The position numbers and the translations under genes were made by a program. This document shows positions 6,192 to 38,263 of a DNA stretch of 64,000 nucleotides, piece by piece (within the stretch, counting starts at the first letter, position 1; each line of letters begins with the position of its first letter). The notes beneath the pieces were generated by a model. It saw only the letters and a program-made list of their open reading frames with translations, ran no database searches and was not told the DNA's origin. This DNA is from Eledone cirrhosa (taxonomy: Eukaryota), in the NCBI GenBank assembly GCA_964016885.1, contig OZ024743.1, positions 160,704,001-160,768,000 on the forward strand, read 5' to 3'.

Positions 6192-6203
6192 AATAATAAT
6201 AAT

Positions 6204-9156: not shown

Positions 9157-9220
<64 letters not shown>
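9157..9220. repeat. (AAT)n microsatellite, left border of the large insertion cluster
   Basis: Seen directly. Confidence 0.99.
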
Positions 9221-9223
<3 letters not shown>

Positions 9224-11947: not shown

Positions 11948-11980
11948 AATAACAATAACAATAATAATAATAATAATAAT

Positions 11981-12162
11981 TGTTTCTACTTTAGGCACAA
12001 GGCCAGCAATTACCCAGTACATTACTGGTACTTTATTTTATCGACCCCGTAAGGATGAAAGGCAAAGTCAACCTCGGCGAGATTTGAATTCGGATCGTAA
12101 AGGGACGTAACTATGCTGGAAAGCATGGCGTCCGACCCTCTACCGATACTGCCAATTCAACG
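11981..12162 (-). mobile_element. tRNA-derived SINE copy
   Basis: Near-identical to 6204-6385; shares the (AAT)n tract at 11948-11980 tail-to-tail with R4 family A. Confidence 0.88.
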
Positions 12163-15400: not shown

Positions 15401-15813
15401 ACACTAAAGAGCGGGACGTTCCAAGAAAGGTCTCCAGACGCTGGAAGAAATCAGGCCGCCCTGCTCCTGTCGGGGCATAGACGGCCACTAACCTGAAAGC
15501 TTGCCCTTCTCCGCTGGTCACGTCCAGCACCACCAACTTACCTTCTGGGTCCAGGAAGATGGCCCGTATGGCAAGATCCAAACCTCTCCGAAAAAGCACA
15601 GCAAATCTTCCCCCCGAAACCGGACGGCTGGGTGATGCGTACACGTCGTAGCCGCCGAAGATCGGTGCGAAGGCCCGTGCTTCGGACATTCTGGTCTCGC
15701 TGATGGCCATTACATCTATGTTTAGTGACCTGAGGTCGTTAAGCAGGTGGCCCTGCTTCCATGACGACCCCCAAGCCACGTGCATTTATGCTGCCTATTC
15801 TGAGTGAGGTCAT
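12410..15813 (-). pseudogene. Tx1-like ORF2 (APE-RT-CCHC), frameshifted
   Basis: ATG at 15813 (MTSLRIGSINARG); pieces 14493-15785, 13753-14469, 13436-13885, 12863-13363 and 12413-12754. Confidence 0.9.
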
Positions 15814-15847
15814 GTTGGAAAGGAGTGGAAAAGATGGGAAAGACCAC

Positions 15848-17671
15848 TTACCTTACTTCTCGTAGGGGAATGACGGTTTTTCCATCCTTTTCACTGCTTG
15901 TGGCCTCCTCAGGAAGGATGTCCTTATAAATCCTCCTGGAGAGTGCTTGTCGGAAGTCTCCGATGTCTTTGGGGAATTTTTGTTTTAGTGCCATGTACGT
16001 TTTCTGTGTGATGCGAGTGATTTGTATGTGTGGAGGTGGTGTGAACTTTTGGGTTGTTGTGTAGTCTTTTTCAGTGATGCTGGTGTTGTGTTGGATGTAG
16101 TGTAATAATTGCTTGTTGTTCAAATTTAATGCTGTGTAGTGTGTATCGTTTTGGTTGTTTTGTTTTTTTTGCGTTTGTTGTGGATTTGTTTCTGTTTCGC
16201 ATTTTGGTGACTTTTGTGGTGTAGGTGATGGTGGTGTTGGGGTTAGTGATGGTGATGGTGTTGGTGTTTGGGTTGATGGGGTTGGTGATGCTGGTGTGGA
16301 TGATGGCATATCTGTCCTAACTTTTTTGTTTGTTAATTTATTTGTTTCCCTCTGTATTTTGTTTTTGGAGGGGGAAGGAAGAGAATTTTTTCTTTTTTGG
16401 TTTCTTTTTTTTTTCCTGATACCGTTTCCCACTCCTCGTCGTCACAATCTGTCAACATTTGTGATAGGCCGGGGAGTGGAAAATCCTCCACAGGCGTTAG
16501 TTTTGGTTGTGGCGTAGTGGATGGTGTAGGCGCTGGTGCTAGTTCTGAAGCGTTGGGTGGTGGTGGTGTTGGTTTTGCTGGTGGTGGTGGTTTTGGTTTT
16601 GCTACTGTTGCTGGGGTTGTTGCTGTTATAGTTGCTTCTGTTGTTGCTGCTACAGTTGTTGCTGCCATCTCTGCTACTGGTGGTGTTGATGGTTGTGTCA
16701 CTGGGGTGGGTAGGAGAGGTGGCCTCAACCTTTTAGCCTGAGGGCAGAAAGCCCTTAGGTGGGTTCCTTCACCACAAACGACACACCTAGGCCTTCTGCC
16801 CTCGTCAATTACCGTGAGGTGGCTGCCGTCAGTGAGGTCTATTACCTCTGGGATCTCCTCAATGCTTTTTTGCTCCGCTTGGATCAGGAGCTCCATCCCA
16901 GATCCGGACCAGTTCTCCTGCTTTTCTTTTGCTATTGCTATTATCTTTGTGTTGGCTTCGATGCCGCCGAGGACGGCCGCTATTAGCCAGGTAATTTCGA
17001 TGGCCGGTGGAACGTGGGTCACCCTGATCTTTACGAGTCTCTGGCCACAATAGCTTGGGACGAGTGTGATGTCGTCACTTCTTAATGGGGCCATGGAGTG
17101 TTCTCTAGCCTCCTCTGGTGTTTCAAAGAACACGTCCACGGTTCCATACTTCTGCCCACGTCTGATGTGGATTTTTCTTGCCCACACATGTCCCAAAGCT
17201 TTTTGGATTTGGGATTCGGATGCTCGTTCCACTCGGCGCGATTTTACATTTATTGTTCGATACGACACGGTGCAGAGGCGCTGATGCTCCATTTTATTAG
17301 GTGGGGGGGAGGCTGACCCTGTACCCATCTTTCTTTACCATTTGTTTGGCATTTTCTAAATCCTCCTGAGTTACCGTAAATGCTTCGAACTGTTTTGCTA
17401 CTCTGGCAACACTCAGGGTGGTTTTTTTAATGTCATTGTTGTTGTTGTTGCTATTGTTATTTTTGATATTATTAATTTTAGTTTCAGTTGTGGTGGTGGT
17501 GACGTCAGTGAAAGTCGGTTTGGGAGAGTCTATTTTGGTTGAAAATATTTCGACATCACGAGTTGATTTATTTTTTCCTTTTGTTTCTGTTATCGCGGTG
17601 GTGGTGGTGGTGGAGGCTTTAACACCTGCAGTCATTGGTAATGGCCAGAAATGAATGTCTGCCTGAGACAA
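15848..17671 (-). pseudogene. Tx1-like ORF1, split by frameshifts in homopolymer runs
   Basis: Pieces 17297-17671, 16333-17328 (CCHC) and 15848-16432. Confidence 0.8.
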
Positions 17672-18101
17672 ATTTAAAATATTGCTACTGCTTATATTTT
17701 TTTTAGTGTTGGCAAACGTAGTAACATTTACAATGGTGGTGTCGGTGTGAGGTGTTAATTCGTGAGGAAGGCTTTAAGCTGCTTGGTGCAGAAGTGAATT
17801 AGCCATTTTTTTTTCAAAGAAATTTTTTGATAATCATAAAAGTTTAAATTTTGGGCACAAGGCCCCAATCTTTTTGGGTGTCCTTTTCGGAAAACAATGT
17901 ATGTGCGCTTATATATAGTTAACAATAACAATTTTCCATAAATGGCAATTTTTAACAAACGGAAATAACAAACCTTTGCCGAGCTCACGATGATACGATT
18001 TACTACGTAGGTCGCCAATAATAATAAAAATAATAATAATAATAATGATAATAATAATAATAATAATAATAATTGTGTCTGAGGAAATAATAATAATAAT
18101 A

Positions 18102-20082
18102 ATTGTGTCTGAGGAAATCTACCATCACCTCCACACAAACAACTTGTTACCGGACGAACAGAAAGGATGCCGAAAGAAGTCACGTGGTACAAAGGACCAG
18201 TTGCTTATTGATAAGATGGTAATGGGGAATTGCAGGAGGAGACACACTGATCTTGCCATGGGATGGATAGACTACAGAAAGGCATTTGACATGGTGCCTC
18301 ATACCTGGATCACCAAAAGCCTGGAGATCTTCAGGGTGGCAGATAACATCAGACAGTTGCTGGGCAGGAGTATGGGGTCCTGGGAGACAGAGTTGACATC
18401 AACTGGAGTATCCTTGGGAAGCGTGAAGATCAAGAGAGGTATCTTCCAGGGAGATAGCCTGTCCCCTCTGTTGTTTGTCCTTGCCCTGATGCCCTTGACC
18501 ATTATGCTGCGAAAAGTGAGAGCAGGATACAAATTGGGAAGGGGAGAGCTTACCATCAATCACCTCCTCTTCATGGACGATCTTAAGCTCTTCGGGAAAA
18601 GTGAGAAGGAGTTGGATGTGCTTGTTGACACTGTCCGTATTTTCAGCAGTGATATATGTATGCAGTTTGGTATTGGTAAATGTGGAGTCATTGTGATGAA
18701 GGGGGGTAGGTTGAGCAGAAGTAACGGGATCCAGATACCAACAGGTGAGATGATAAAGGAAATTGACTCTGAGGAATGATACAAGTATTTGGGCGTTCTG
18801 GAGGCTGATGGCATAAAGAACAAAAAATGAAGGAATTGTTAAGAACTGAATACATTCGGAGAGTAAGGAGCGTATTGAAGTCACATCTGAACAGCAGAAA
18901 TGCCATAAGCGCAGTAAATTCCCGAGCTGTGTCTATTATTAGGTACAGTGCGGGAATTCTGAGATGGAATGTTGCTGAACAAAAAGAAATGGATAGGAAG
19001 ACTAGGAAGCTATTGACTATCTACAACATGTTCCACAAGAGGAGTGATGTCGATAGACTCTACCTAAGGAGATCTGAGGGTGGAAGAGGCCTTATCAGCA
19101 TAGAGGACTGTGTTCAGATGGAGAAAAACAACCTATACAAATACGTGACCTATAGTAAGGAGCCAATGCTCAGAACTGTACTGAAGGAGGGGACAGTAGG
19201 CCAGGGGATATCCAAGGAGGAAATAACATCAAGGAGGAAGAGCAGCCTTAAGGGAAAATCCCTTCATAGTACCTTCTTTGAGAAAACTGAATTTAGAGAT
19301 CCACAGACATGGAACTGGTTGAGAAGAGGAGACCTCAAAAAGGCTACAGAAGGAATGCTAATGGCTGCGCAGGAGCAGGCCCTCAAAACGAAGTGGTTGA
19401 AGCACCATATCTACAAGGAGGAGGCTAGCCCAATGTGCAGGATCTGTGGAGAGAGAGAGGAGACTGTGGCTCACATTGTGTCCGAGTGTAAACACCTAGC
19501 CCAGACCCACTATAAGGGCTGGAGACACGATGTGATGGGCAGGGTGATCCACTGGCACCTGTGCAAAGTAAACAATCTACCACATTCTGAGAAATGGTAT
19601 GAGCATAGGCCAGAGGCGGTGATGGAGAACAGTCAGGTGAAGGTGCTGTGGGATTTTAGGATACAGACGGACAAAAAACTGGAACACAATAGACCTGACC
19701 TGGTGGTTGTGGACAAAGAAAAAAGATCGTGCCTGATTGTGGATGTGGCCTGCCCGTTCGACACGAGAGTGCAAGAGAAGGAGAGGGAGAAAATTAACCG
19801 ATACCAGGACCTAAAGTGGGAGGTGAAAAGGATTTGGAACTGCCATGAAGTCAAAGTGATCCCGATTGTCATAGGCGCACTGGGGACTATCTCCAAAGGT
19901 TTCCAGGGATGGTTAAAGAAAATCGGCCCCTTCACGCTTTTTGGAACGCTTCAAAAGGCATGCTTGCTTGGAACAGCAAGAACCCTCCGATACGTCCTGA
20001 ATATCTGAGGCTGCAGGTAGTGGCTTGATGTTCAATCCAACGGACTTTCCAGTTAACCAACATCAATGACTGAGATTCAAGG
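18102..20082 (+). mobile_element. R4/Dong-like family A copy 2 (truncated at the position equivalent to 9966; one nonsense codon and one frameshift)
   Basis: Near-identical to 9966-11947; GGA>TGA at 18777-18779 and one A missing near 18822. Confidence 0.92.
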
Positions 20083-20088
20083 AATAAC

Positions 20089-20128
<40 letters not shown>

Positions 20129-20131
<3 letters not shown>

Positions 20132-21816
20132 TCAACTGGAGTATCCTTGGGAAGCGTGAAGATCAAGAGAGGTATCTTCCAGGGAGATAGCCTGTCCCCT
20201 CTGTTGTTTGTCCTTGCCCTGATGCCCTTGACCATTATGCTGCGAAAAGTGAGAGCAGGATACAAGTTGGGAAGGGGAGAGCTTACCATCAATAACCTCC
20301 TCTTCATGGACGATCTTAAGCTCTTCGGGAAAAGTGAGAAGGAGTTGGATGTGCTTGTTGACACTGTCCGTATTTTCAGCAGTGATATATGTATGCAGTT
20401 TGGTATTGGTAAATGTGGAGTCATTGTGATGAAGAGGGGTAGGTTGAGCAGAAGTAACGGGATCCAGATACCAACAGGTGAGATGATAAAGGAAATTGAC
20501 TCTGAGGAAGGATACAAGTATTTGGGCGTTCTGGAGGCTGATGGCATAAAGAACAAAAAAATGAAGGAATTGTTAAGAACTGAATACATTCGGAGAGTAA
20601 GGAGCGTATTGAAGTCACATCTGAACAGCAGAAATGCCATAAGCGCAGTAAATTCCCGAGCTGTGTCTATTATTAGGTACAGTGCGGGAATTCTGAGATG
20701 GAATGTTGCTGAACAAAAAGAAATGGATAGGAAGACTAGGAAGCTATTGACTATCTACAACATGTTCCACAAGAGGAGTGATGTCGATAGACTCTACCTA
20801 AGGAGATCTGAGGGTGGAAGAGGTCTTATCAGCATAGAGGACTGTGTTCAGATGGAGAAAAACAACCTATACAAATACGTGACCTATAGTAAGGAGCCAA
20901 TGCTCAGAACTGTACTGAAGGAGGGGACAGTAGGCCAGGGGATGTCCAAGGAGGAAATAACATCAAGGAGGAAGAGCAGCCTTAAGGGAAAATCCCTTCA
21001 TAGTACCTTCTTTGAGAAAACTGAATTTAGAGATCCACAGACATGGAACTGGTTGAGAAGAGGAGACCTCAAAAAGGCTACAGAAGGAATGCTAATGGCT
21101 GCGCAGGAGCAGGCCCTCAAAACGAAGTGGTTGAAGCACCATATCTACAAGGAGGAGGCTAGCCCACTGTGCAGGATCTGTGGAGAGAGAGAGGAGACTG
21201 TGGCTCACATTGTGTCCGAGTGTAAACACCTAGCCCAGACACACTATAAGGGCTGGAGACACGATGTGATGGGCAGGGTGATCCACTGGCACCTGTGCAA
21301 AGTAAACAATCTACCACATTCTGAGAAATGGTATGAGCATAGGCCAGAGGCGGTGATGGAGAACAGTCAGGTGAAGGTGCTGTGGGATTTTAGGATACAG
21401 ACGGACAAAAAACTGGAACACAATAGACCTGACCTGGTGGTTGTGGACAAAGAAAAAAGATCGTGCCTGATTGTGGATGTGGCCTGCCCGTTCGACACGA
21501 GAGTGCAAGAGAAGGAGAGGGAGAAAATTAACCGATACCAGGACCTAAAGTGGGAGGTGAAAAGGATTTGGAACTGCCATGAAGTCAAAGTGATCCCGAT
21601 TGTCATAGGCGCACTGGGGACTATCTCCAAAGGTTTCCAGGGATGGTTAAAGAAAATCGGCCCCTTCACGCTTTTTGGAACGCTTCAAAAGGCATGCTTG
21701 CTTGGAACAGCAAGAACCCTCCGATACGTCCTGAATATCTGAGGCTGCAGGTAGTGGCTTGATATTCAATCCAACGGACTTTCCAGTTAACCAACATCAA
21801 TGACTGAGATTCAAGG
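20129..21816 (+). mobile_element. R4/Dong-like family A copy 3 (truncated at the position equivalent to 10260)
   Basis: Near-identical to 10260-11947; frame open to 21742. Confidence 0.92.
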
Positions 21817-21912
21817 AATAACAATAACAATAATAATAATAATAATAATAATAATGAAGGAATTGTAATAATTGAATAATAATTGAATAATAATTGAATA
21901 ATAATAATAAAA

Positions 21913-23091
21913 ATGAAGGAATTGTTAAGAACTGAATACATTCGAAGAGTAAGGAGCGTATTGAAGTCACATCTGAACAGCAGAAATGCCATAAGCGCAG
22001 TAAATTCCCGAGCTGTGTCTATTATTAGGTACAGTGCGGGAATTCTGAGATGGAATGTTGCTGAACAAAAAGAAATGGATAGGAAGACTAGGAAGCTATT
22101 GACTATCTACATGTTCCACAAGAGGAGTGATGTCGATAGACTCTACCTAAGGAGATCTGAGGGTGGAAGAGGTCTTATCAGCATAGAGGACTGTGTTCAG
22201 ATGGAGAAAAACAACCTATACAAATACGTGACCTATAGTAAGGAGCCAATGCTCAGAACTGTACTGAAGGAGGGGACAGTAGGCCAGGTGATGTCCAAGG
22301 AGGAAATAACATCAAGGAGGAAGAGCAGCCTTAAGGGAAAATCCCTTCATAGTACCTTCTTTGAGAAAACTGAATTTAGAGATCCACAGACATGGAACTG
22401 GTTGAGAAGAGGAGACCTCAAAAAGGCTACAGAAGGAATGCTAATGGCTGCGCAGGAGCAGGCCCTCAAAACGAAGTGGTTGAAGCACCATATCTACAAG
22501 GAGGAGGCTAGCCCACTGTGCAGGATCTGTGGAGAGAGAGAGGAGACTGTGGCTCACATTGTGTCCGAGTGTAAACACCTAGCCCAGACACACTATAAGG
22601 GCTGGAGACACGATGTGATGGGCAGGGTGATCCACTGGCACCTGTGCAAAGTAAACAATCTACCACATTCTGAGAAATGGTATGAGCATAGGCCAGAGGC
22701 GGTGATGGAGAACAGTCAGGTGAAGGTGCTGTGGGATTTTAGGATACAGACGGACAAAAAACTGGAACACAATAGACCTGACCTGGTGGTTATGGACAAA
22801 GAAAAAAGATCGTGCCTGATTGTGGATGTGGCCTGCCCGTTCGACACGAGAGTGCAAGAGAAGGAGAGGGAGAAAATTAACCGATACCAGGACCTAAAGT
22901 GGGAGGTGAAAAGGATTTGGAACTGCCATGAAGTCAAAGTGATCCCGATTGTCATAGGCGCACTGGGGACTATCTCCAAAGGTTTCCAGGGATGGTTAAA
23001 GAAAATCGGCCCCTTCACGCTTTTTGGAACGCTTCAAAAGGCATGCTTGCTTGGAACAGCAAGAACCCTCCGATACGTCCTGAATATCTGA
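21913..23091 (+). CDS. Family A C-terminal ORF (RT thumb/linker, CCHC, RLE), unit 1
   Basis: 392-aa ATG-started ORF equal to the C-terminus of 9219-11873; expression unknown. Confidence 0.55.
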   Translation: MKELLRTEYIRRVRSVLKSHLNSRNAISAVNSRAVSIIRYSAGILRWNVAEQKEMDRKTRKLLTIYMFHKRSDVDRLYLRRSEGGRGLISIEDCVQMEKNNLYKYVTYSKEPMLRTVLKEGTVGQVMSKEEITSRRKSSLKGKSLHSTFFEKTEFRDPQTWNWLRRGDLKKATEGMLMAAQEQALKTKWLKHHIYKEEASPLCRICGEREETVAHIVSECKHLAQTHYKGWRHDVMGRVIHWHLCKVNNLPHSEKWYEHRPEAVMENSQVKVLWDFRIQTDKKLEHNRPDLVVMDKEKRSCLIVDVACPFDTRVQEKEREKINRYQDLKWEVKRIWNCHEVKVIPIVIGALGTISKGFQGWLKKIGPFTLFGTLQKACLLGTARTLRYVLNI

Positions 23092-23261
23092 GGCTGCAGG
23101 TAGTGGCTTGATATTCAATCCAACGGACTTTCCAGTTAACCAACATCAATGACTGAGATTCAAGGAATAACAATAACAATAATAATAATAATAATAATAA
23201 TAATGAAGGAATTGTAATAATTGAATAATAATTGAATAATAATTGAATAATAATAATAAAA

Positions 23262-24440
23262 ATGAAGGAATTGTTAAGAACTGAATACATTCGAAGAGTA
23301 AGGAGCGTATTGAAGTCACATCTGAACAGCAGAAATGCCATAAGCGCAGTAAATTCCCGAGCTGTGTCTATTATTAGGTACAGTGCGGGAATTCTGAGAT
23401 GGAATGTTGCTGAACAAAAAGAAATGGATAGGAAGACTAGGAAGCTATTGACTATCTACATGTTCCACAAGAGGAGTGATGTCGATAGACTCTACCTAAG
23501 GAGATCTGAGGGTGGAAGAGGTCTTATCAGCATAGAGGACTGTGTTCAGATGGAGAAAAACAACCTATACAAATACGTGACCTATAGTAAGGAGCCAATG
23601 CTCAGAACTGTACTGAAGGAGGGGACAGTAGGCCAGGTGATGTCCAAGGAGGAAATAACATCAAGGAGGAAGAGCAGCCTTAAGGGAAAATCCCTTCATA
23701 GTACCTTCTTTGAGAAAACTGAATTTAGAGATCCACAGACATGGAACTGGTTGAGAAGAGGAGACCTCAAAAAGGCTACAGAAGGAATGCTAATGGCTGC
23801 GCAGGAGCAGGCCCTCAAAACGAAGTGGTTGAAGCACCATATCTACAAGGAGGAGGCTAGCCCACTGTGCAGGATCTGTGGAGAGAGAGAGGAGACTGTG
23901 GCTCACATTGTGTCCGAGTGTAAACACCTAGCCCAGACACACTATAAGGGCTGGAGACACGATGTGATGGGCAGGGTGATCCACTGGCACCTGTGCAAAG
24001 TAAACAATCTACCACATTCTGAGAAATGGTATGAGCATAGGCCAGAGGCGGTGATGGAGAACAGTCAGGTGAAGGTGCTGTGGGATTTTAGGATACAGAC
24101 GGACAAAAAACTGGAACACAATAGACCTGACCTGGTGGTTATGGACAAAGAAAAAAGATCGTGCCTGATTGTGGATGTGGCCTGCCCGTTCGACACGAGA
24201 GTGCAAGAGAAGGAGAGGGAGAAAATTAACCGATACCAGGACCTAAAGTGGGAGGTGAAAAGGATTTGGAACTGCCATGAAGTCAAAGTGATCCCGATTG
24301 TCATAGGCGCACTGGGGACTATCTCCAAAGGTTTCCAGGGATGGTTAAAGAAAATCGGCCCCTTCACGCTTTTTGGAACGCTTCAAAAGGCATGCTTGCT
24401 TGGAACAGCAAGAACCCTCCGATACGTCCTGAATATCTGA
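23262..24440 (+). CDS. Family A C-terminal ORF, unit 2
   Basis: Same protein as unit 1. Confidence 0.55.
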   Translation: MKELLRTEYIRRVRSVLKSHLNSRNAISAVNSRAVSIIRYSAGILRWNVAEQKEMDRKTRKLLTIYMFHKRSDVDRLYLRRSEGGRGLISIEDCVQMEKNNLYKYVTYSKEPMLRTVLKEGTVGQVMSKEEITSRRKSSLKGKSLHSTFFEKTEFRDPQTWNWLRRGDLKKATEGMLMAAQEQALKTKWLKHHIYKEEASPLCRICGEREETVAHIVSECKHLAQTHYKGWRHDVMGRVIHWHLCKVNNLPHSEKWYEHRPEAVMENSQVKVLWDFRIQTDKKLEHNRPDLVVMDKEKRSCLIVDVACPFDTRVQEKEREKINRYQDLKWEVKRIWNCHEVKVIPIVIGALGTISKGFQGWLKKIGPFTLFGTLQKACLLGTARTLRYVLNI

Positions 24441-24610
24441 GGCTGCAGGTAGTGGCTTGATATTCAATCCAACGGACTTTCCAGTTAACCAACATCAATG
24501 ACTGAGATTCAAGGAATAACAATAACAATAATAATAATAATAATAATAATAATGAAGGAATTGTAATAATTGAATAATAATTGAATAATAATTGAATAAT
24601 AATAATAAAA

Positions 24611-25789
24611 ATGAAGGAATTGTTAAGAACTGAATACATTCGAAGAGTAAGGAGCGTATTGAAGTCACATCTGAACAGCAGAAATGCCATAAGCGCAGTA
24701 AATTCCCGAGCTGTGTCTATTATTAGGTACAGTGCGGGAATTCTGAGATGGAATGTTGCTGAACAAAAAGAAATGGATAGGAAGACTAGGAAGCTATTGA
24801 CTATCTACATGTTCCACAAGAGGAGTGATGTCGATAGACTCTACCTAAGGAGATCTGAGGGTGGAAGAGGTCTTATCAGCATAGAGGACTGTGTTCAGAT
24901 GGAGAAAAACAACCTATACAAATACGTGACCTATAGTAAGGAGCCAATGCTCAGAACTGTACTGAAGGAGGGGACAGTAGGCCAGGTGATGTCCAAGGAG
25001 GAAATAACATCAAGGAGGAAGAGCAGCCTTAAGGGAAAATCCCTTCATAGTACCTTCTTTGAGAAAACTGAATTTAGAGATCCACAGACATGGAACTGGT
25101 TGAGAAGAGGAGACCTCAAAAAGGCTACAGAAGGAATGCTAATGGCTGCGCAGGAGCAGGCCCTCAAAACGAAGTGGTTGAAGCACCATATCTACAAGGA
25201 GGAGGCTAGCCCACTGTGCAGGATCTGTGGAGAGAGAGAGGAGACTGTGGCTCACATTGTGTCCGAGTGTAAACACCTAGCCCAGACACACTATAAGGGC
25301 TGGAGACACGATGTGATGGGCAGGGTGATCCACTGGCACCTGTGCAAAGTAAACAATCTACCACATTCTGAGAAATGGTATGAGCATAGGCCAGAGGCGG
25401 TGATGGAGAACAGTCAGGTGAAGGTGCTGTGGGATTTTAGGATACAGACGGACAAAAAACTGGAACACAATAGACCTGACCTGGTGGTTATGGACAAAGA
25501 AAAAAGATCGTGCCTGATTGTGGATGTGGCCTGCCCGTTCGACACGAGAGTGCAAGAGAAGGAGAGGGAGAAAATTAACCGATACCAGGACCTAAAGTGG
25601 GAGGTGAAAAGGATTTGGAACTGCCATGAAGTCAAAGTGATCCCGATTGTCATAGGCGCACTGGGGACTATCTCCAAAGGTTTCCAGGGATGGTTAAAGA
25701 AAATCGGCCCCTTCACGCTTTTTGGAACGCTTCAAAAGGCATGCTTGCTTGGAACAGCAAGAACCCTCCGATACGTCCTGAATATCTGA
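24611..25789 (+). CDS. Family A C-terminal ORF, unit 3
   Basis: Same protein as unit 1. Confidence 0.55.
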   Translation: MKELLRTEYIRRVRSVLKSHLNSRNAISAVNSRAVSIIRYSAGILRWNVAEQKEMDRKTRKLLTIYMFHKRSDVDRLYLRRSEGGRGLISIEDCVQMEKNNLYKYVTYSKEPMLRTVLKEGTVGQVMSKEEITSRRKSSLKGKSLHSTFFEKTEFRDPQTWNWLRRGDLKKATEGMLMAAQEQALKTKWLKHHIYKEEASPLCRICGEREETVAHIVSECKHLAQTHYKGWRHDVMGRVIHWHLCKVNNLPHSEKWYEHRPEAVMENSQVKVLWDFRIQTDKKLEHNRPDLVVMDKEKRSCLIVDVACPFDTRVQEKEREKINRYQDLKWEVKRIWNCHEVKVIPIVIGALGTISKGFQGWLKKIGPFTLFGTLQKACLLGTARTLRYVLNI

Positions 25790-25959
25790 GGCTGCAGGTA
25801 GTGGCTTGATATTCAATCCAACGGACTTTCCAGTTAACCAACATCAATGACTGAGATTCAAGGAATAACAATAACAATAATAATAATAATAATAATAATA
25901 ATGAAGGAATTGTAATAATTGAATAATAATTGAATAATAATTGAATAATAATAATAAAA

Positions 25960-27138
25960 ATGAAGGAATTGTTAAGAACTGAATACATTCGAAGAGTAAG
26001 GAGCGTATTGAAGTCACATCTGAACAGCAGAAATGCCATAAGCGCAGTAAATTCCCGAGCTGTGTCTATTATTAGGTACAGTGCGGGAATTCTGAGATGG
26101 AATGTTGCTGAACAAAAAGAAATGGATAGGAAGACTAGGAAGCTATTGACTATCTACATGTTCCACAAGAGGAGTGATGTCGATAGACTCTACCTAAGGA
26201 GATCTGAGGGTGGAAGAGGTCTTATCAGCATAGAGGACTGTGTTCAGATGGAGAAAAACAACCTATACAAATACGTGACCTATAGTAAGGAGCCAATGCT
26301 CAGAACTGTACTGAAGGAGGGGACAGTAGGCCAGGTGATGTCCAAGGAGGAAATAACATCAAGGAGGAAGAGCAGCCTTAAGGGAAAATCCCTTCATAGT
26401 ACCTTCTTTGAGAAAACTGAATTTAGAGATCCACAGACATGGAACTGGTTGAGAAGAGGAGACCTCAAAAAGGCTACAGAAGGAATGCTAATGGCTGCGC
26501 AGGAGCAGGCCCTCAAAACGAAGTGGTTGAAGCACCATATCTACAAGGAGGAGGCTAGCCCACTGTGCAGGATCTGTGGAGAGAGAGAGGAGACTGTGGC
26601 TCACATTGTGTCCGAGTGTAAACACCTAGCCCAGACACACTATAAGGGCTGGAGACACGATGTGATGGGCAGGGTGATCCACTGGCACCTGTGCAAAGTA
26701 AACAATCTACCACATTCTGAGAAATGGTATGAGCATAGGCCAGAGGCGGTGATGGAGAACAGTCAGGTGAAGGTGCTGTGGGATTTTAGGATACAGACGG
26801 ACAAAAAACTGGAACACAATAGACCTGACCTGGTGGTTATGGACAAAGAAAAAAGATCGTGCCTGATTGTGGATGTGGCCTGCCCGTTCGACACGAGAGT
26901 GCAAGAGAAGGAGAGGGAGAAAATTAACCGATACCAGGACCTAAAGTGGGAGGTGAAAAGGATTTGGAACTGCCATGAAGTCAAAGTGATCCCGATTGTC
27001 ATAGGCGCACTGGGGACTATCTCCAAAGGTTTCCAGGGATGGTTAAAGAAAATCGGCCCCTTCACGCTTTTTGGAACGCTTCAAAAGGCATGCTTGCTTG
27101 GAACAGCAAGAACCCTCCGATACGTCCTGAATATCTGA
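25960..27138 (+). CDS. Family A C-terminal ORF, unit 4
   Basis: Same protein as unit 1. Confidence 0.55.
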   Translation: MKELLRTEYIRRVRSVLKSHLNSRNAISAVNSRAVSIIRYSAGILRWNVAEQKEMDRKTRKLLTIYMFHKRSDVDRLYLRRSEGGRGLISIEDCVQMEKNNLYKYVTYSKEPMLRTVLKEGTVGQVMSKEEITSRRKSSLKGKSLHSTFFEKTEFRDPQTWNWLRRGDLKKATEGMLMAAQEQALKTKWLKHHIYKEEASPLCRICGEREETVAHIVSECKHLAQTHYKGWRHDVMGRVIHWHLCKVNNLPHSEKWYEHRPEAVMENSQVKVLWDFRIQTDKKLEHNRPDLVVMDKEKRSCLIVDVACPFDTRVQEKEREKINRYQDLKWEVKRIWNCHEVKVIPIVIGALGTISKGFQGWLKKIGPFTLFGTLQKACLLGTARTLRYVLNI

Positions 27139-27308
27139 GGCTGCAGGTAGTGGCTTGATATTCAATCCAACGGACTTTCCAGTTAACCAACATCAATGAC
27201 TGAGATTCAAGGAATAACAATAACAATAATAATAATAATAATAATAATAATGAAGGAATTGTAATAATTGAATAATAATTGAATAATAATTGAATAATAA
27301 TAATAAAA

Positions 27309-28487
27309 ATGAAGGAATTGTTAAGAACTGAATACATTCGAAGAGTAAGGAGCGTATTGAAGTCACATCTGAACAGCAGAAATGCCATAAGCGCAGTAAA
27401 TTCCCGAGCTGTGTCTATTATTAGGTACAGTGCGGGAATTCTGAGATGGAATGTTGCTGAACAAAAAGAAATGGATAGGAAGACTAGGAAGCTATTGACT
27501 ATCTACATGTTCCACAAGAGGAGTGATGTCGATAGACTCTACCTAAGGAGATCTGAGGGTGGAAGAGGTCTTATCAGCATAGAGGACTGTGTTCAGATGG
27601 AGAAAAACAACCTATACAAATACGTGACCTATAGTAAGGAGCCAATGCTCAGAACTGTACTGAAGGAGGGGACAGTAGGCCACGGGATGTCCAAGGAGGA
27701 AATAACATCAAGGAGGAAGAGCAGCCTTAAGGGAATATCCCGTGATAGTACCTTCTTTGAGAAAACTGAATTTAGAGATCCACAGACATGGAACTGGTTG
27801 AGAAGAGGAGACCTCAAAAAGGCTACAGAAGGAATGCTAATGGCTGCGCAGGAGCAGGCCCTCAAAACGAAGTGGTTGAAGCACCATATCTACAAGGAGG
27901 AGGCTAGCCCACTGTGCAGGATCTGTGGAGAGAGAGAGGAGACTGTGGCTCACATTGTGTCCGAGTGTAAACACCTAGCCCAGACCCACTATAAGGGCTG
28001 GAGACACGATGTGATGGGCAGGGTGATCCACTGGCACCTGTGCAAAGTAAACAATCTACCACATTCTGAGAAATGGTATGAGCATAGGCCAGAGGCGGTG
28101 ATGGAGAACAATCAGGTGAAGGTGCTGTGGGATTTTAGGATACAGACGGACAAAAAACTGGAACACAATAGACCTGACCTGGTGGTTATGGACAAAGAAA
28201 AAAGATCGTGCCTGATTGTGGATGTGGCCTGCCCGTTCGACACGAGAGTGCAAGAGAAGGAGAGGGAGAAAATTAACCGATACCAGGACCTAAAGTGGGA
28301 GGTGAAAAGGATTTGGAACTGCCATGAAGTCAAAGTGATCCCGATTGTCATAGGCGCACTGGGGACTATCTCCAAAGGTTTCCAGGGATGGTTAAAGAAA
28401 ATCGGCCCCTTCACGCTTTTTGGAACGCTTCAAAAGGCATGCTTGCTTGGAACAGCAAGAACCCTCCGATACGTCCTGAATATCTGA
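27309..28487 (+). CDS. Family A C-terminal ORF, unit 5 (mosaic variant)
   Basis: 392 aa with a few substitutions. Confidence 0.55.
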   Translation: MKELLRTEYIRRVRSVLKSHLNSRNAISAVNSRAVSIIRYSAGILRWNVAEQKEMDRKTRKLLTIYMFHKRSDVDRLYLRRSEGGRGLISIEDCVQMEKNNLYKYVTYSKEPMLRTVLKEGTVGHGMSKEEITSRRKSSLKGISRDSTFFEKTEFRDPQTWNWLRRGDLKKATEGMLMAAQEQALKTKWLKHHIYKEEASPLCRICGEREETVAHIVSECKHLAQTHYKGWRHDVMGRVIHWHLCKVNNLPHSEKWYEHRPEAVMENNQVKVLWDFRIQTDKKLEHNRPDLVVMDKEKRSCLIVDVACPFDTRVQEKEREKINRYQDLKWEVKRIWNCHEVKVIPIVIGALGTISKGFQGWLKKIGPFTLFGTLQKACLLGTARTLRYVLNI

Positions 28488-28657
28488 GGCTGCAGGTAGT
28501 GGCTTGATATTCAATCCAACGGACTTTCCAGTTAACCAACATCAATGACTGAGATTCAAGGAATAACAATAACAATAATAATAATAATAATAATAATAAT
28601 GAAGGAATTGTAATAATTGAATAATAATTGAATAATAATTGAATAATAATAATAAAA

Positions 28658-29839
28658 ATGAAGGAATTGTTAAGAACTGAATACATTCGAAGAGTAAGGA
28701 GCGTATTGAAGTCACATCTGAACAGCAGAAATGCCATAAGCGCAGTAAATTCCCGAGCTGTGTCTATTATTAGGTACAGTGCGGGAATTCTGAGATGGAA
28801 TGTTGCTGAACAAAAAGAAATGGATAGGAAGACTAGGAAGCTATTGACTATCTACAACATGTTCCACAAGAGGAGTGATGTCGATAGACTCTACCTAAGG
28901 AGATCTGAGGGTGGAAGAGGTCTTATCAGCATAGAGGACTGTGTTCAGATGGAGAAAAACAACCTATACAAATACGTGACCTATAGTAAGGAGCCAATGC
29001 TCAGAACTGTACTGAAGGAGGGGACAGTAGGCCAGGGGATGTCCAAGGAGGAAATAACATCAAGGAGGAAGAGCAGCCTTAAGGGAATATCCCGTCATAG
29101 TACCTTCTTTGAGAAAACTGAATTTAGAGATCCACAGACATGGAACTGGTTGAGAAGAGGAGACCTCAAAAAGGCTACAGAAGGAATGCTAATGGCTGCG
29201 CAGGAGCAGGCCCTCAAAACGAAGTGGTTGAAGCACCATATCTACAAGGAGGAGGCTAGCCCACTGTGCAGGATCTGTGGAGAGAGAGAGGAGACTGTGG
29301 TTCACATTGTGTCCGAGTGTAAACACCTAGCCCAGGCCCACTATAAGGGCTGGAGACACGATGTGATGGGCAGGGTGATCCACTGGCACCTGTGCAAAGT
29401 AAACAATTTACCACATTCTGAGAAATGGTATGAGCATAGGCCAGAGGCGGTGATGGAGAACAATCAGGTGAAGGTGCTGTGGGATTTTAGGATACAGACG
29501 GACAAAAAACTGGAACACAATAGACCTGACCTGGTGGTTGTGGACAAAGAAAAAAGAACGTGTCTGATTGTGGATGTGGCCTGCCCGTTCGACACGAGAG
29601 TGCAAGAGAAGGAGAGGGAGAAAATTAACCGATACCAGGACCTAAAGTGGGAGGTGAAAAGGATTTGGAACTGCCATGAAGTCAAAGTGATCCCGATTGT
29701 CATAGGCGCACTGGGGACTATCTCCAAAAGTTTCCAGGGATGGTTAAAGAAAATCGGCCCCTTCACGCTTTTTGGAACGCTTCAAAAGGCATGCTTGCTT
29801 GGAACAGCAAGAACCCTCCGATACGTCCTGAATATCTGA
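28658..29839 (+). CDS. Family A C-terminal ORF, unit 6
   Basis: 393 aa; lacks the 3-bp deletion of units 1-5. Confidence 0.55.
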   Translation: MKELLRTEYIRRVRSVLKSHLNSRNAISAVNSRAVSIIRYSAGILRWNVAEQKEMDRKTRKLLTIYNMFHKRSDVDRLYLRRSEGGRGLISIEDCVQMEKNNLYKYVTYSKEPMLRTVLKEGTVGQGMSKEEITSRRKSSLKGISRHSTFFEKTEFRDPQTWNWLRRGDLKKATEGMLMAAQEQALKTKWLKHHIYKEEASPLCRICGEREETVVHIVSECKHLAQAHYKGWRHDVMGRVIHWHLCKVNNLPHSEKWYEHRPEAVMENNQVKVLWDFRIQTDKKLEHNRPDLVVVDKEKRTCLIVDVACPFDTRVQEKEREKINRYQDLKWEVKRIWNCHEVKVIPIVIGALGTISKSFQGWLKKIGPFTLFGTLQKACLLGTARTLRYVLNI

Positions 29840-30036
29840 GGCTGCAGGTAGTGGCTTGATATTCAATCCAATGGACTTTCCAGTTAACCAACATCAATGA
29901 CTGAGATTCAAGGAATAACAACAACAATAATAATAATAATAATAATAACAATATAAAAAGCCCCGGCACCACCACCGACATAGCCAACAACAATAATAGC
30001 CAACTACAACAAAAAGTATATTATATTATTGTAAGG

Positions 30037-30081
30037 CACTGGGTGATTGCTGGCCTTGTGCCTGGAGTGGAGACAATTATT
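30037..30081 (+). mobile_element. Short 3' fragment of the SINE family, opposite orientation
   Basis: actgggtgattgctggccttgtgcctggagtggagacaattatt matches the SINE 3' end. Confidence 0.6.
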
Positions 30082-30166
30082 AATAATTTCATTCTTAAGC
30101 CACGCAATGCTCACATTAAGGAACCACTGATGATAATAACAATTTAAAAAAACAACAAAAAGAAAA

Positions 30167-33100
30167 CCCCGTGACCAAGAAATAACGGGATGGCGGCCGG
30201 CGGAGAATAGCCGTGTCTCTAGGAGAGAACGACCCCTCTAGTCTTGGTTGACACTCGTTCTAGAAGTGGTAACACGAAATGATTACCCCTTGGCGGATAA
30301 GGATAAAACGCGACAAAATAAAGTAAATGTCTAATGATAAAATCTCATACCGGATCGGCCGTCACCCGGGTAAAAAAGGGCCGCGTCCCTCAGAGAGGAA
30401 CCAGAATGGGGTCGAAAAATCAGCTAATGGTTCAAACCTTCCCATCACTTCGGAGCTGGAGACCTCCCATAACCGGAATACTCCTACTGTTGGCCCTCCA
30501 TGCTCACCACCAAGAAATCCAAAGAAAAAGAGAGAAAAATTGTCAAGGGAAGATAATAAAGAAGTCCTTGAGGCTTTCTACACTGCCATGTACTACCCAT
30601 CAAATACATCGAATACAGAACAGACATATATCAACTGGAAAAAGAAACATCCCGAAAACAGAGGCTATATTGACAGTAACAAACTAGCCAATATACGAAG
30701 AAATATTGTAAGAAAAAAGTTACTAACTGATATAGAAATTGATCAGATCAAGCTATTAGCACAAAGTCATCGAAGGGAAAATGAAACATGTGTCAGTGAA
30801 AACGAGGTAAACTGTAACACTTCGAATCCCGGGGTTGGGGCGGAATCACTGGCAACAGAACAAATTAAAGAAAGGATCGAAAAAGTGGTGGGAGTGCATG
30901 CTCAGGATGAAACTCGAAATGAAAATAATGAGATCGTAAATGATAAAGAAATGAATGAGAATGAACTTGCCAAATTGAAGGATGAAATTATGATCGAATG
31001 GATGAAATGAAAGAATCTGACATGGAGCAACGAGACACCCTCCCTAAGATCCAGAACTCCAAACAGAACCAAAAGATAGTACACAAGACTGACATAATTC
31101 TCAAAAACATTATCATCACAAACAAACTAAACATTACTGATTTAAATCATCTCTATTATGCATCGGCTAAAGTCACCACTCACTTATGTGGAGTGAAGAT
31201 GAAAAATCAAAGGAATTCCCACAAGAAATCTACTTGGCAAGAGCACATCAATTGCCAAATAAACCTTCTCCGATCTGACATAGAAATTTTAACAAACTAT
31301 AAAGTAGGTGAACATGTTAAACAAACTAAACTTAGAAAATTGAAAACAAAAGTACGGTATAAAATCAACATGTGACATAGACATGCTGATAGAAATAATC
31401 AAGCAAAAAGTGTCGGCCAAAGCTGCTCGTATAAGGCGCTTTGAAAAACGATCTAGATTCTATAAGGACAATAATATGTTCAAAAACAACCAAAGAAACT
31501 TCTACAGAAAAATTGGTAAGTCAACAATAACTGCTAAATCAATACCACCCAAGGTGGAAGTGCAAGAATTCTGGGAAAAGATCTGGGCCGAAGAAAGAGT
31601 TCATAACATACATGCCCCATGGATAGACAGACAAATGAAAGATACAGCTCACCTTGAGGAACAAACATGGGAAAATATAACAGTTGAACAGTTGCGCTTG
31701 GCTCTAAGAAAAACCAGCAAATGGAAATCCCCAGAAAAAGACAAAATACAAAACTTTTGGATAAATGCCTTCACAGAGTCTCATGAGCTGTTAGCCCAAC
31801 TTTACAATGAAATAGTTAAGGAGTCAGAAAAGATACCTTCATGGCTAGTTAACGGCATTACATTCCTGCTTCCGAAGAATGATGAGACAAACAATCCCAC
31901 AAATTACAGACCGATAACTTGCTTGACCACAATGTATAAAATTTTAACATCAGTCCTAACTGAATACACATATGACCACCTGATAACAAATGAACTATTT
32001 CCCATTGAGCAGAAAGGGTGTAAACGAGGCTCATATGGCTGTAAGGATCAGCTTCTGGTTAACAAAATGATACTGGAAGATTGTCATAATAGACACAAAA
32101 ATCTATCGATTGCTTGGATAGATTATAAAAAAGCATTTGATAGTTTGCCACACAGTTGGATTGAAAAATGTTTAGAGATTTTCAAAATATCCCCCGTTGT
32201 CAGGAGGTTTTTGTCATTCAATATGAAGACATGGAAAACGACACTCCTTTTGAATAGTGAAACAAAATCACTGGAAGCTGGAGAAGTTAATATTAATTGT
32301 AGAATTTTTCAGGGTGACTCTTTATCACCGCTTTTATTCTGCATCGCACTTATACCATTAAGTAAAATGCTCAATGAAACAAAACATGGATATAAAGTCT
32401 ATGACAAAACCATTAATCACCTGTTCTACATGGATGACCTGAAACTATTTGCAAAAAATGAGGAACAATTGGAAGGGCTATTATCCACTGTGAAGCAGTT
32501 CAGTGATGACATTAAAATGGAGTTTGGACTAGATAAATGCGCCAAAGCAACGTTCACCAGAGGAAAGCTGCTGAAGAGTTCAGACATTAATCTTGATCGG
32601 GGGAACGTGATAAGAGAACTTGATCAAGAAAAAACTTTAAAATATCTAGGTGTTTGTGAAGGAGACGGAATTAAGCACTCGACAATGAGGGAAAGGATAA
32701 GGAAGGAATGTTACCGCAGAGTAAGAGCAATCTTAAGAACGGAATTGAATGCAAGGAATAGGATCGATGCCATAAACACGCTTGCCATACCAGTAGTAAC
32801 CTACAGTTACAATGTCATCAACTGGTCAAGCACAGAGATCCGTAGGCTCGATACAAAAATTCGAAAATTATTAACCATGCACAGAATGCATCACCCTAAG
32901 GCAGATATAGATAGAATATGTCTCCCTAGGAAAGAAGGAGGACGTAGGTTAATCCAGTTAGACATTGCGTTCAAAACTGCAACAATTGGATTATCTACAT
33001 ATCTAAGGGAATCACATGATTGGATGATCAAACTCGTTTTGAAACACGAAAGCATCAAAAGATCATATTCCATTACATAAGATGCACAAAGATACAGTAA

Positions 33101-34120
33101 TGGACTACAAATTTCAGAAGTCCCATTTACTGCTGAAATGGAAAACACAGAAAAAGCAAAGCAGGTAAAAGTAACTGCAAAGAAAGAACTGCTACAGAAA
33201 CTGGCTAAGAAATGGCAAGAAAAGCCTCTGTATGGAAAATACCCAGAGCGAGCTAACAATCCTGATGTTGACAAAACTTTAACCCATCAGTGGTTGGCAT
33301 CCTCTGGACTGAAATCGGAGACTGAAGGACTGATTATATCGGCACAAGATCAGTGTCTGCCAACAAAAAATTACCAAGCCAACATAATAAAAAATGGGTG
33401 CAGCCCATTATGCCGTGTATGCAAAAAACAACCAAAGACCATTGACCATATAATTTCAATGTGCAGTCCTATAGCTCCAACCGAATACCTAAACAGGCAT
33501 GACAGAGCTGCACAATACATACATTGGATAATGTGTAAGCATTTTGACCTGCCCCATCAAAAGAATTGGTGGGAACATCAACCACCTCCCATACTTGAAA
33601 AAGATCACATCTCAATCTTGTGGAATTTAGCATCCAAACAAACCGAAAAATAGATGCAAACAGACCTGATATAATATTGAAAGACTTTCAAAAGAGGGTA
33701 TGCCTGCTAATTGATATGTCTGTTCCAATAGACAAGAATGTATCTATAAAAACATTTGAAAAATTGAGCAAGTATAAGGACCTGGAGATAGAAATTGGAA
33801 AAATGTGGAAATTGAGAACTAAAACAATACCAGTGGTTGTAGGCGCTCTGGGAATGATACCTAAGGGGTCTAATGATTACTTATCGCAAATCCCAGGAAA
33901 CCCGCGTATAGGAGAAATACAAAAGATAGTACTAATGGGAACTGCCCATATACTAAGGAAGTTTCTGTCAATATAAGTACATCACAAGTCTAAACACTAA
34001 AGATGCATGTGTGAGTATGTATGTTCTTTCTTGAACATGGCGGACCTTGTTGTCTCTTGAGGTCACTGGTTGTGACTTGGTGATAACTCGTATGAACATA
34101 AAGCAAGATAAATGCAACTG
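30167..34120 (+). mobile_element. R4/Dong-like family B, apparently full-length copy with disabled ORF
   Basis: GC-rich structured 5'UTR, ORF pieces 30327-33976, 3'UTR and (TAA)n tail; the 5' boundary is approximate. Confidence 0.88.
30327..33976 (+). pseudogene. Family B single ORF (N-terminal domain, RT, CCHC, RLE) with frameshifts and a stop
   Basis: Pieces 30327-31010, 30998-31375, 31383-33080 (NYRPITCL, WIDYKKAFD, HLFYMDD), 33138-33653 (CRVCx8HIISMC) and 33620-33976 (RPDIIL..LIDMSVP..K). Confidence 0.9.
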
Positions 34121-34235
34121 TAATAATAATAATAATAATAAAAAAGCATTCGATAGTTTGCCACACAGTTGGATTGAAAAATGTTTAGAGATTTTCAAAA
34201 TATCCCCCGTTGTCAGGAGGTTTTAGTCGTTCAGT

Positions 34236-35990: not shown

Positions 35991-36249
35991 GTACATCACA
36001 AGTCTAAACACTAAAGATGCATGTGTGAGTATGTATGTTCTTTCTTGAACATGGCGGACCTTGTTGTCTCTTGAGGTCACTGGTTGTGACTTGGTGATAA
36101 CTCGTATGAACATAAAGCAAGATAAATGCAACTGTAATAATAATAATAATAATAAAAAAGCATTCGATAGTTTGCCACACAGTTGGATTGAAAAATGTTT
36201 AGAGATTTTCAAAATATCCCCCGTTGTCAGGAGGTTTTAGTCGTTCAGT

Positions 36250-38004: not shown

Positions 38005-38263
38005 GTACATCACAAGTCTAAACACTAAAGATGCATGTGTGAGTATGTATGTTCTTTCTTGAACATGGCGGACCTTGTTGTCTCTTGAGGTCACTGGTTG
38101 TGACTTGGTGATAACTCGTATGAACATAAAGCAAGATAAATGCAACTGTAATAATAATAATAATAATAAAAAAGCATTCGATAGTTTGCCACACAGTTGG
38201 ATTGAAAAATGTTTAGAGATTTTCAAAATATCCCCCGTTGTCAGGAGGTTTTAGTCGTTCAGT

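Follow-up and report, generated by a model that had tools for sequence, protein, structure and literature searches.

The window, which is the whole 64,000-nucleotide stretch of Eledone cirrhosa DNA analysed here, carries a short tandem array derived from a 5'-truncated LINE (family A), together with longer copies of the same family that lie upstream of it. There are 13 same-strand family-A copies within 104 kb at this locus. The copies that precede the array, its six units (U1 to U6), and the tail that closes it are as follows.

9221-11980, forward strand: copy A, the longest family-A copy in the window, 5'-truncated.
18056-18118, forward strand: copy B's 5' junction, with a stutter of 2.1 perfect (100% identical) repeats of a 30-bp block.
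18102-20129, forward strand: copy B, family A, with its AAT tail at 20083-20129 and a truncation point unlike that of copy C and of the units.
20130-21816, forward strand: copy C, a longer family-A copy immediately upstream of the array.
21817-23165, forward strand: unit U1, with the tract at 21817-21908, the truncated body at 21909-23165, and an open frame from the ATG at 21913.
21817-21908: tract of U1, made up of AATAAC twice, (AAT)8, a partial re-copy of the first 11-13 nt of the body, 3.6 repeats of an 11-mer, and an AAT run.
23166-24514, forward strand: unit U2, identical to U1.
24515-25863, forward strand: unit U3, identical to U1.
25864-27212, forward strand: unit U4, identical to U1.
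27213-28561, forward strand: unit U5, a mosaic with the 3-bp deletion and 885A as in U1-U4.
28562-29913, forward strand: unit U6, 1352 bp, without the 3-bp deletion.
29914-29953, forward strand: tail of U6 itself, AATAAC AAC AAC (AAT)n, which is unlike the inter-unit tracts and occurs once.

The source LINE of the units targets (TAA)n and encodes a reverse transcriptase (RT) and a restriction-like endonuclease. Copy A is preceded by an (ATA)n run (9157-9220), ends in an AAT tail of its own (11948-11980), and has an open frame of 883 codons with RT, zinc motif, and restriction-like endonuclease; RVT_1 is found in it at E=4.3e-23. A full-length genomic copy has a stop-to-stop frame of 1141 codons with RVT_1 at residues 486-738. 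The closest solved structures to copy A are R2 proteins, one of which matches at E=1.2e-30. A second aligned stretch, weak when taken alone (i-E 0.037), pairs query residues 771-844 with the C-terminal end of R2 (1044-1118 of 1169), which we take to be the endonuclease motif of R2. The motif RPDLVV..VDV..K in the endonuclease region corresponds to KPDLIF..VDV..K in R2. A 67%-identical relative has a weak HSDR_N_2 match (E=0.0036), zf-RVT is likewise weak (E about 1e-3), and no APE family is found in the 1141-aa frame by Pfam HMMs at E<=1. The RT in a single long ORF, a putative C-terminal PD-(D/E)XK endonuclease behind the zinc motif, and the lack of APE would place the element among the R4/Dong-like LINEs.

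The surroundings of the copies are in line with this placement. AAT or TAA runs bound both ends of A, B, C, U1-U6, the downstream copies Long3, T1, and T2, the copy Old, and the loci read elsewhere, and (TAA)n is the published target of Dong (PMC7998251; PMC3812793). The label R4 used in the preliminary description is thus suitable for the architecture and the (TAA)n target, which are Dong-like, and is restricted to these two features. Similar to Bombyx Dong, DongAg, and DongBg of the R4 clade (PMC7998251, PMC3812793), the element has one ORF of about 1140 codons with RT, zinc motif, and C-terminal restriction-like endonuclease, and has (TAA)n both as insertion site and as tail. In contrast, Pfam HMMs detect no N-terminal Myb/SANT-like domain, which is reported for the clade, in either the 1141-aa frame or P0001 at E<=1; the diverged form of this domain is visible in the clade by profile-profile alignment search (PMC7998251). 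Its best relatives in the database share 67% identity, an informative name is absent from all 120 listed homologues, and in a protein atlas only RVT_1 clusters appear, with Arthropoda, Cnidaria or Chordata as the commonest phylum. No tRNA gene is found in the window by ARAGORN.

The array at 21817-29913 consists of six head-to-tail units, five of 1349 bp followed by one of 1352 bp, and the unit starts obtained from sequence anchors are 21817, 23166, 24515, 25864, 27213, and 28562. Each unit comprises a 92-bp stuttered (AAT)n tract and a 1257-bp 5'-truncated LINE body. Across the six units, alignment columns 1-292 do not vary; they cover the entire tract as well as the junction. The preliminary description, which reported six units of the same truncation, junction, and tract length behind two longer and differently truncated copies, is correct in both respects, the longer copies being B and C. 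No difference separates U1-U4 (4 x 1349 bp, 100% identity), and the count of these identical units is as given by the assembly. U5 differs from them at seven sites, whereas U6 differs by 13 substitutions and has ACA at the place where U1-U5 share a 3-bp deletion, so that the earlier statement of a deletion common to five units also stands. The state 382T is confined to U1-U4, while the deletion and 885A are common to U1-U5. U5 has 433T, 439G, 683C, and 808A in common with U6, and two private changes. The open frame is retained in all units; six of the seven differences between U5 and U1 change a residue, as counted from the translations, and constraint is not seen in these differences, the units being too young for a selection test. 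For 1.3-kb units at 99-100% identity, chance is no issue.

The junctions within the array are of the tail-to-internal type with the target sequence retained: the 3' end and AAT tail of copy C pass straight into a truncated body, and an equal tract lies between all units. A 34-nt core of the stutter has six matches in the 3.0-Gb genome, all six of which are the local unit junctions, and a 171-bp BLAST query across the junction matches only the six local units, all at 100% identity. Because the stutter core occurs only at the six local units, the junction arose once and was then copied locally. The view of the preliminary description, one insertion followed by amplification, is borne out by this and by the identity of the tract in all units, and its suggested search for the junction elsewhere in the genome gives a local-only result.

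The truncation point itself is less specific than the stutter. Joined to (AAT)3, it has 12 matches in the genome, six local and six at other loci, and the site spanning it occurs 4515 times. At the six non-local loci, the point is joined to a plain AAT run or to another stutter. The recurrence of the point fits a microhomology between AAAAAT of the element and the (AAT)n target. A truncation hotspot or a sub-genomic start at the ATG of the unit was considered and rejected, as six other loci among 4515 copies are a mild excess at most. Stuttered 5' junctions recur in the family at copy B, where the block consists of (AAT)n and the first bases of the truncated body, and at locus L009. The earlier argument that independent target-primed reverse transcription (TPRT) would not repeat the junction is valid for the stutter and fails for the truncation point as such. 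A rival explanation by six separate insertions at a hotspot of truncation could draw on the shared truncation point with (AAT)3 at the six other loci and on the stutters of copy B and L009, but would have to produce six identical 92-bp tracts including the re-copy of the body start and the 11-mer repeated 3.6 times. The restriction of the stutter core to the local units refutes this explanation in practice, and we give it practically no weight.

The units might also have been added through RNA, by a read-through transcript across the tract that undergoes a new round of reverse transcription into the (AAT)n at the locus. The family is abundant, with 4515 copies of the site, and young, with many copies 98.3-99.7% identical to copy C; it targets (TAA)n, its own tails included; and the open frame has been kept throughout the array. 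However, separate TPRT events would be expected to differ in AAT length and 5' junction, while the six tracts are identical to the base, and the junction is not dispersed in the genome by either the 34-nt core or the 171-bp BLAST search. The hybrid bodies described below are also seamless, in register, and free of any new junction, unlike truncated read-through cDNA. Re-mobilised read-through RNA, one of the three routes proposed earlier, is disfavoured on these grounds and is considered very improbable.

A further concern is the assembly, since short reads cannot place four identical units and the assembler may have inflated or deflated their number in an otherwise real array. Of 19 sequencing runs, 13 contain part of the stretch. 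Over 21780-23090, where 21780-21921 is masked as repeat, the contig depths of run X8 for array-specific alleles (all minus other) are inconsistent, with ~443 at 22289, ~198 at 22590, and ~9400 at 22792; these are sums over thousands of family copies, and no copy number is derived from them. The contigs of runs X1 and X11 have the general family states (ACA present; G, C, G at three sites), and their depth is low and uninformative on the array. Against an artefact, three unit types (U1-U4, U5, and U6) with the same junction require at least three units if the bases are right, and the neighbouring family-B array has ordered unit-specific variants, with V1=V4 and V2=V5. Moreover, an array of 8.1 kb fits within one current long read. 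A wrong number of identical units is therefore improbable.

The unit bodies are chimeras with a U6-like 5' end and a C-like 3' part. Copy C and U6 differ at 12 alignment columns, and at these U1-U4 have the U6 state in the first (column 35) and the C state in the other 11. Such a pattern is expected if C and the original truncated copy underwent unequal homologous exchange. At the same 12 columns U5 reads uuuccucucccc, where u is the U6 state and c the C state, and it is a mosaic. The state 683A is shared by C and U1-U4 alone, being absent from all 21 other genomic copies examined. The 3' half of U6 has the states of another subfamily, namely 753T, 808A, 903A, 908T, and 1074A, which are present in 5 to 13 of the 21 genomic copies. 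All four gametes are present at eight site pairs when C, U1, U5, and U6 are compared, and therefore the units exchanged sequence as DNA. We infer that U6 is the original truncated insertion or its closest descendant, and that copy C was the exchange partner and the donor of the 3' part of U1-U5.

In our reading, which we hold to be quite probable, a truncated LINE copy lying just after the tail of a longer one gave rise to the six units through unequal homologous exchange between the two, accompanied by a degree of gene conversion. A truncated copy U0, of another subfamily than C, would have entered the (AAT)n next to C through target-primed reverse transcription, and template slippage at its 5' junction would have produced the stutter, with U6 as its closest descendant. 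Next, U0 would have paired out of register with the homologous 3' part of C, and a crossover there would yield a third body, consisting of the 5' end of U0 and the 3' part of C and preceded by a copy of the tail of C with the stutter. The 3-bp deletion and 885A presumably originated in this hybrid body, additional unequal exchanges would lead to six units, and at least one conversion patch would give the mosaic U5. The four units proximal to C would be the most recent, because they are still identical. Exchange seeded by the adjacent copy, another of the three routes suggested in the preliminary description, receives its support from the C states at 11 of 11 downstream diagnostic sites in U1-U4 and from the downstream chimera T1. 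A point against this explanation is U5, for which one or more additional conversion events, or patchy repair, must be assumed.

Other DNA routes lead to related predictions. Recombination between C and the truncated copy might excise a 1349-bp circle, composed of the 3' part of C, the tract, and the 5' part of U0, and rolling-circle replication or repeated homologous reintegration of this circle might produce the U1-U4 block. Such a one-period circle would have precisely the observed chimeric make-up and could explain the complete identity of U1-U4, and rolling-circle replication is among the three mechanisms given for transposon tandems in PMC5932611. However, the array is graded (U1-U4, mosaic U5, U6) and not uniform, and the distribution of the deletion and 885A (U1-U5) against 382T (U1-U4 only) requires several successive steps. 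In addition, the junction is without a copy elsewhere in the genome, and the two-unit case T1/T2 requires no circle. A circle as the source of the block is thus given a low probability, about that of an assembly artefact. Unequal exchange between sister chromatids, exchange between homologues, and a one-unit circle that is excised and reintegrates by homology would leave the same product and are indistinguishable from the sequence. The array could also have formed by another DNA route and then received C sequence by gene conversion, which is less economical given the clean single breakpoint of T1.

Two neighbouring groups of copies offer a comparison with the proposed unequal exchange in the family-A array.

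29954-34131, forward strand: long copy of family B, a second (TAA)n-tailed RT/RLE family, with its frame broken into several ORFs.
34132-48220, forward strand: family-B array of seven 2014-bp units, V1-V7, with one shared truncation.
63975-64000, forward strand: start of a further family-A long copy that extends past the window and is followed by a chimeric two-unit dimer (L045:2146-5704).

The dimer is an independent two-unit case 34 kb downstream, to the right of the window, with the order Long3-T1-T2, a period of 1807, and junction tracts that do not differ. In positions 3-1075 there are 43 sites where T1 agrees with T2 against Long3, and position 1345 is one more; in positions 1130-1746, T1 sides with Long3 against T2 at 20 of 20 sites. 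T1 is a clean chimera of one crossover with a single breakpoint. In the family-B array, the junction is (TAA)6, or (TAA)7 in one case, and V7 is the most divergent unit. Chimerism with its own long copy is not found, with 41 fixed differences across columns 12-1837, and therefore not every array at the locus shows its seeding partner. Six of six other sampled same-strand clusters of family A, located on another chromosome (contig C1), have differing truncation points and no repeated unit. Because all sampled clusters are unamplified, double insertion is seen as the common first step and amplification as the rarer second.

Similar sequences of events are described for other elements. For tail-to-internal tandems of 5'-truncated non-LTR elements, McGurk and Barbash 2018 propose a double insertion and then expansion by unequal exchange (PMC5932611). 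Like those tandems, including the R1 array of Drosophila, the array here has an intact 3' end joined to a 5'-truncated copy with the target kept, has one junction copied through the array, and belongs to a genome where differently truncated dimers are common and expanded arrays rare. In contrast to those tandems, the present element targets a microsatellite and regenerates it as its tail, so that every copy is a new landing site. The array is also tiny with its six units, and its hybrid units can still be read as records of the crossovers; the Drosophila arrays could not be assembled. Truncated R2 variants in the rDNA of Bacillus rossius multiply via unequal recombination (PMC4370867). As in that case, dead truncated copies of an RLE-type LINE multiply by DNA recombination and not by retrotransposition. 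The recombining repeat of B. rossius is, however, the host rDNA unit, while here it is the element itself, outside rDNA.

The array is likely a clear example of the already described route from transposon to satellite, with an ordinary mechanism that leaves the model unchanged. This route is usually inferred from short-read junction counts, whereas here its first steps are kept base by base: the founding copy U6, the homology donor C, the predicted hybrid units, and a two-unit example with a single breakpoint. The locus extends sequence-level support for double insertion followed by unequal exchange to a further LINE clade and a further animal, and shows why elements that target (TAA)n are prone to array formation. 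In practice, identical truncations of family A in this genome are not to be counted as separate retrotransposition events. More tentatively, and with a probability well short of even, the stretch of about 60 kb may be a local nursery of satellite DNA, where a LINE re-hits its own (TAA)n tails and three dimers have been expanding to two, six, and seven units. If so, successive early stages of satellite birth would lie side by side with the founding crossovers readable. If true genome-wide, the rate and polarity of the earliest exchanges could be measured here, and microsatellite-targeting LINEs would be self-seeding generators of macrosatellites.

The Eledone cirrhosa genome comprises 3.0 Gb in 1796 contigs, and the window corresponds to C4:160704001-160768000. 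Tandem Repeats Finder detected six occurrences of a 98-bp AAT-rich tract, 1349 bp apart, and exact anchors place the starts of the six head-to-tail units (U1-U6) at 21817, 23166, 24515, 25864, 27213, and 28562. Five units are 1349 bp long and the last, U6, is 1352 bp. Each consists of a 92-bp tract and a 1257-bp body, which aligns to the 3' end of the longer window copies of this LINE (family A). The tract contains, in order, two AATAAC motifs, (AAT)8, a re-copy of the body start (11-13 nt), 3.6 copies of the 11-mer TAATAATTGAA, and an AAT run. The following family-A features lie upstream of the array.

9221-11980: copy A, with its own truncation point
18056-18118: junction stutter of copy B, 30 bp repeated 2.1 times
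18102-20129: copy B, with its own truncation point
20130-21816: copy C, with its own truncation point

The anchors, the alignment, and the upstream copies agree with the preliminary description of the array in every particular. Longer copies with different truncations precede the units (B and C, and also A, all truncated at different points), and the 3-bp deletion ascribed to five units is the absence from U1-U5 of an ACA that U6 has. Alignment columns 1-292, covering the tract, junction, and body start, are invariant across U1-U6. U1-U4 are identical over their entire length; U5 departs from their sequence at 7 sites, and U6 at 13 sites in addition to the ACA. The changes in U5 cluster at 27592-27653, with two within 3 bp and three within 9 bp, and 6 of the 7 alter a residue as counted from the translations. 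Such clustered changes might be a companion of repair synthesis during exchange.

The six tracts are identical, AAT number included, and thus do not represent six events of target-primed reverse transcription (TPRT). A 34-nt core of the stutter, the repeated re-copying at the 5' junction, has six genome matches, all of them in the six units, and a 171-bp query across the junction gave the six local units as the only hits at 100% identity. The junction arose once and then multiplied, and its copies remained local. The proposed search for the junction at other loci therefore found the stutter core locally only. The earlier claim that independent TPRT would not repeat such a junction holds for the stutter, but not for the bare truncation point. 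The truncation point joined to (AAT)3 has 12 genome matches, six local and six elsewhere, on five contigs; other loci carrying it are L031, L032, L033, L040, L041, and L042. At the six other loci (AAT)n adjoins the shared point AAAAATG, whose ATG is in frame, and some of their bodies are only 88-93% identical to copy C. L009, one of the six other loci with the same truncation point, has a stutter unlike the local one. Truncation is mildly favoured at this point, probably by microhomology between AAAAAT and (AAT)n. Had the units been added by retrotransposition, their junctions should be new, their AAT lengths should vary, and copies should be dispersed; none of this was seen, and this RNA route is very improbable.

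Stuttered 5' junctions recur in family A. In copy B the first 15 nt are re-copied behind (AAT)5, and at L009:1501-1653 on contig C7 about 28 nt are re-copied, followed by an AAT run. These recurrent stutters suggest that AAT microhomologies allow template jumps between the RNA and its (AAT)n target.

The 1264-bp bodies of A, B, C, and U1-U6 were aligned, and 21 other genomic copies were added to polarise the sites. Copy C and U6 have different states at 12 columns (35, 433, 439, 646, 681, 683, 753, 808, 903, 908, 1074, and 1217). In U1-U4 only column 35 has the U6 state and the remaining 11 have that of C, as expected from the suggestion that unequal exchange was seeded by the adjacent homologous copy; the pattern of U5 is uuuccucucccc. 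The state 683A occurs in C and U1-U4 only and in none of the 21 other copies. U6 has 753T, 808A, 903A, 908T, and 1074A, which belong to another subfamily and recur in 5 to 13 of the 21 copies, so U6 and C come from different source elements. U1-U5 are hybrids of a U6-type junction and 5' end with a C-type 3' part, the product expected of a crossover in which the truncated copy paired out of register with the 3' part of C. Such a crossover would yield a new unit, with the 5' part of the original truncated copy (U0) and the 3' part of C, behind a copied C tail and stutter, while the original copy would keep the last position in the array. The inter-unit tracts start like the tail of C (AATAACAATAAC), and the tail of U6 is its own and different (AATAACAACAAC) and occurs once. 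The 3-bp deletion and 885A, found in U1-U5 and in neither C nor U6, and 382T, confined to U1-U4, would mark later steps of array growth. The four identical units adjacent to C are the youngest. Among C, U1, U5, and U6, eight pairs of sites have all four gametes, which calls for one or more additional conversions or double exchanges, most simply a U6-type patch placed in U5. The array could also have been built by another route and then been made C-like by gene conversion from C. An assembly artefact in the number of units is unlikely, since three distinct unit types with one junction argue for at least three real units.

Flanks of 20 kb on either side of the window were included, and 13 same-strand family-A copies lie within 104 kb. 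A third family-A cluster resembles the array at a smaller scale.

63975-71509 in window coordinates (L045:1-7509): third cluster, with Long3, T1, T2, and an older copy
63975-66090 in window coordinates: Long3, a long family-A copy

T1 and T2 are 1807-bp units whose idiosyncratic junction tract is identical in both. They differ at 20 sites, every one in the last third. T1 shares its state with T2 against Long3 at 43 sites between positions 3 and 1075 and at one more at 1345; between positions 1130 and 1746 it sides with Long3 against T2 at 20 of 20 sites. The pattern is that of one crossover joining Long3 and T2, an independent replicate caught at the two-unit stage. A circle of one period, giving U1-U4 by rolling-circle replication or reintegration, would also carry the observed hybrid make-up; the graded array and the T1/T2 case make it unnecessary, and it is a rather doubtful source of these units.

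Family A is abundant, the 28-nt site at the truncation point having 4515 occurrences in the genome. Among the first 100 of these listed on contig C1, taken as a baseline, six pairs (L047-L052) lie on the same strand within 3 kb of each other and were picked for this proximity. Truncation points differ among the copies in all six clusters, and a repeated unit is present in none. Independent double insertion into tails is thus common, with amplification as a second step that follows less often. Head-to-tail pairs and triplets are frequent on C1, a pattern that insertion of new copies into older tails would produce.

The window contains a second array, from another (TAA)n-tailed LINE family with reverse transcriptase (RT) and restriction-like endonuclease (RLE), family B.

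About 29954-34131: long family-B copy, directly before the array
34132-48220: array V1-V7, seven 2014-bp units with a single common truncation

A 37-mer at the junction has six genome matches, all local, and the seventh junction has one extra TAA. V1 equals V4 and V2 equals V5, which suggests a three-unit register, and the last unit, V7, is the most divergent. A unit register and a most divergent last unit are usual in arrays evolving by unequal exchange. No chimerism of V1-V7 with the present long copy was found (41 fixed differences, columns 12 to 1837), and the seed of this array is not visible at the locus.

The 883-codon open frame of copy A contains an RVT_1 domain (E=4.3e-23) and a weak zf-RVT match. 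Its best solved-structure matches are R2 proteins (E=1.2e-30), and a second stretch, the C-terminal RPDLVV..VDV..K, aligns with the corresponding stretch of R2, which we take to be its RLE motif. In the full-length copy L048 (minus strand), a stop-to-stop frame of 1141 codons, in which Pfam detected no N-terminal Myb-like domain, follows a leader of about 1.1 kb that begins where the AAT tail of the copy before it ends. AAT/TAA runs bound every family-A copy read, in the window and elsewhere. None of the 120 homologues listed bears an informative name. Excerpts of PMC7998251 and PMC3812793 describe the R4/Dong clade by RT, RLE, and a (TAA)n target, and the family-A element has an RT, an RLE-like C-terminal stretch, and a (TAA)n target. 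By these features it is probably Dong-like.

Other features surround these copies.

1048-3735: second copy of a GC-richer LINE, 80% identical
5999-6397: 196-bp unit, two copies (87% match), beginning with AAT repeats
11981-12050: recurrence of the 196-bp unit sequence, right after the tail of copy A
12863-17773, minus strand: GC-richer LINE between copies A and B, with several ORFs
14493-15785, minus strand: its longest ORF, 430 aa

By eye, the ORFs of this LINE look like a zinc-knuckle first ORF with endonuclease-like and reverse-transcriptase parts, broken by frameshifts. The 196-bp unit possibly represents a short, non-autonomous element linked to AAT runs. ARAGORN found no tRNA genes in the window.

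Comparable Dong arrays were not found in the open-access papers searched. In the model of McGurk and Barbash, as excerpted from PMC5932611, tail-to-internal tandems of 5'-truncated non-LTR elements start from double insertion and then grow through unequal exchange, the Drosophila R1 array being an example; the structure of U1-U6 fits this model. Its growth also parallels the stick insect case excerpted from PMC4370867, where truncated R2 variants were multiplied by unequal recombination. U1-U6 is a new, clear example of an already known process. Beyond the R1 and R2 cases as these excerpts present them, the hybrid units recording the exchanges are legible in this array, and the family-A element regenerates its own target, which explains the 13 same-strand copies within 104 kb.
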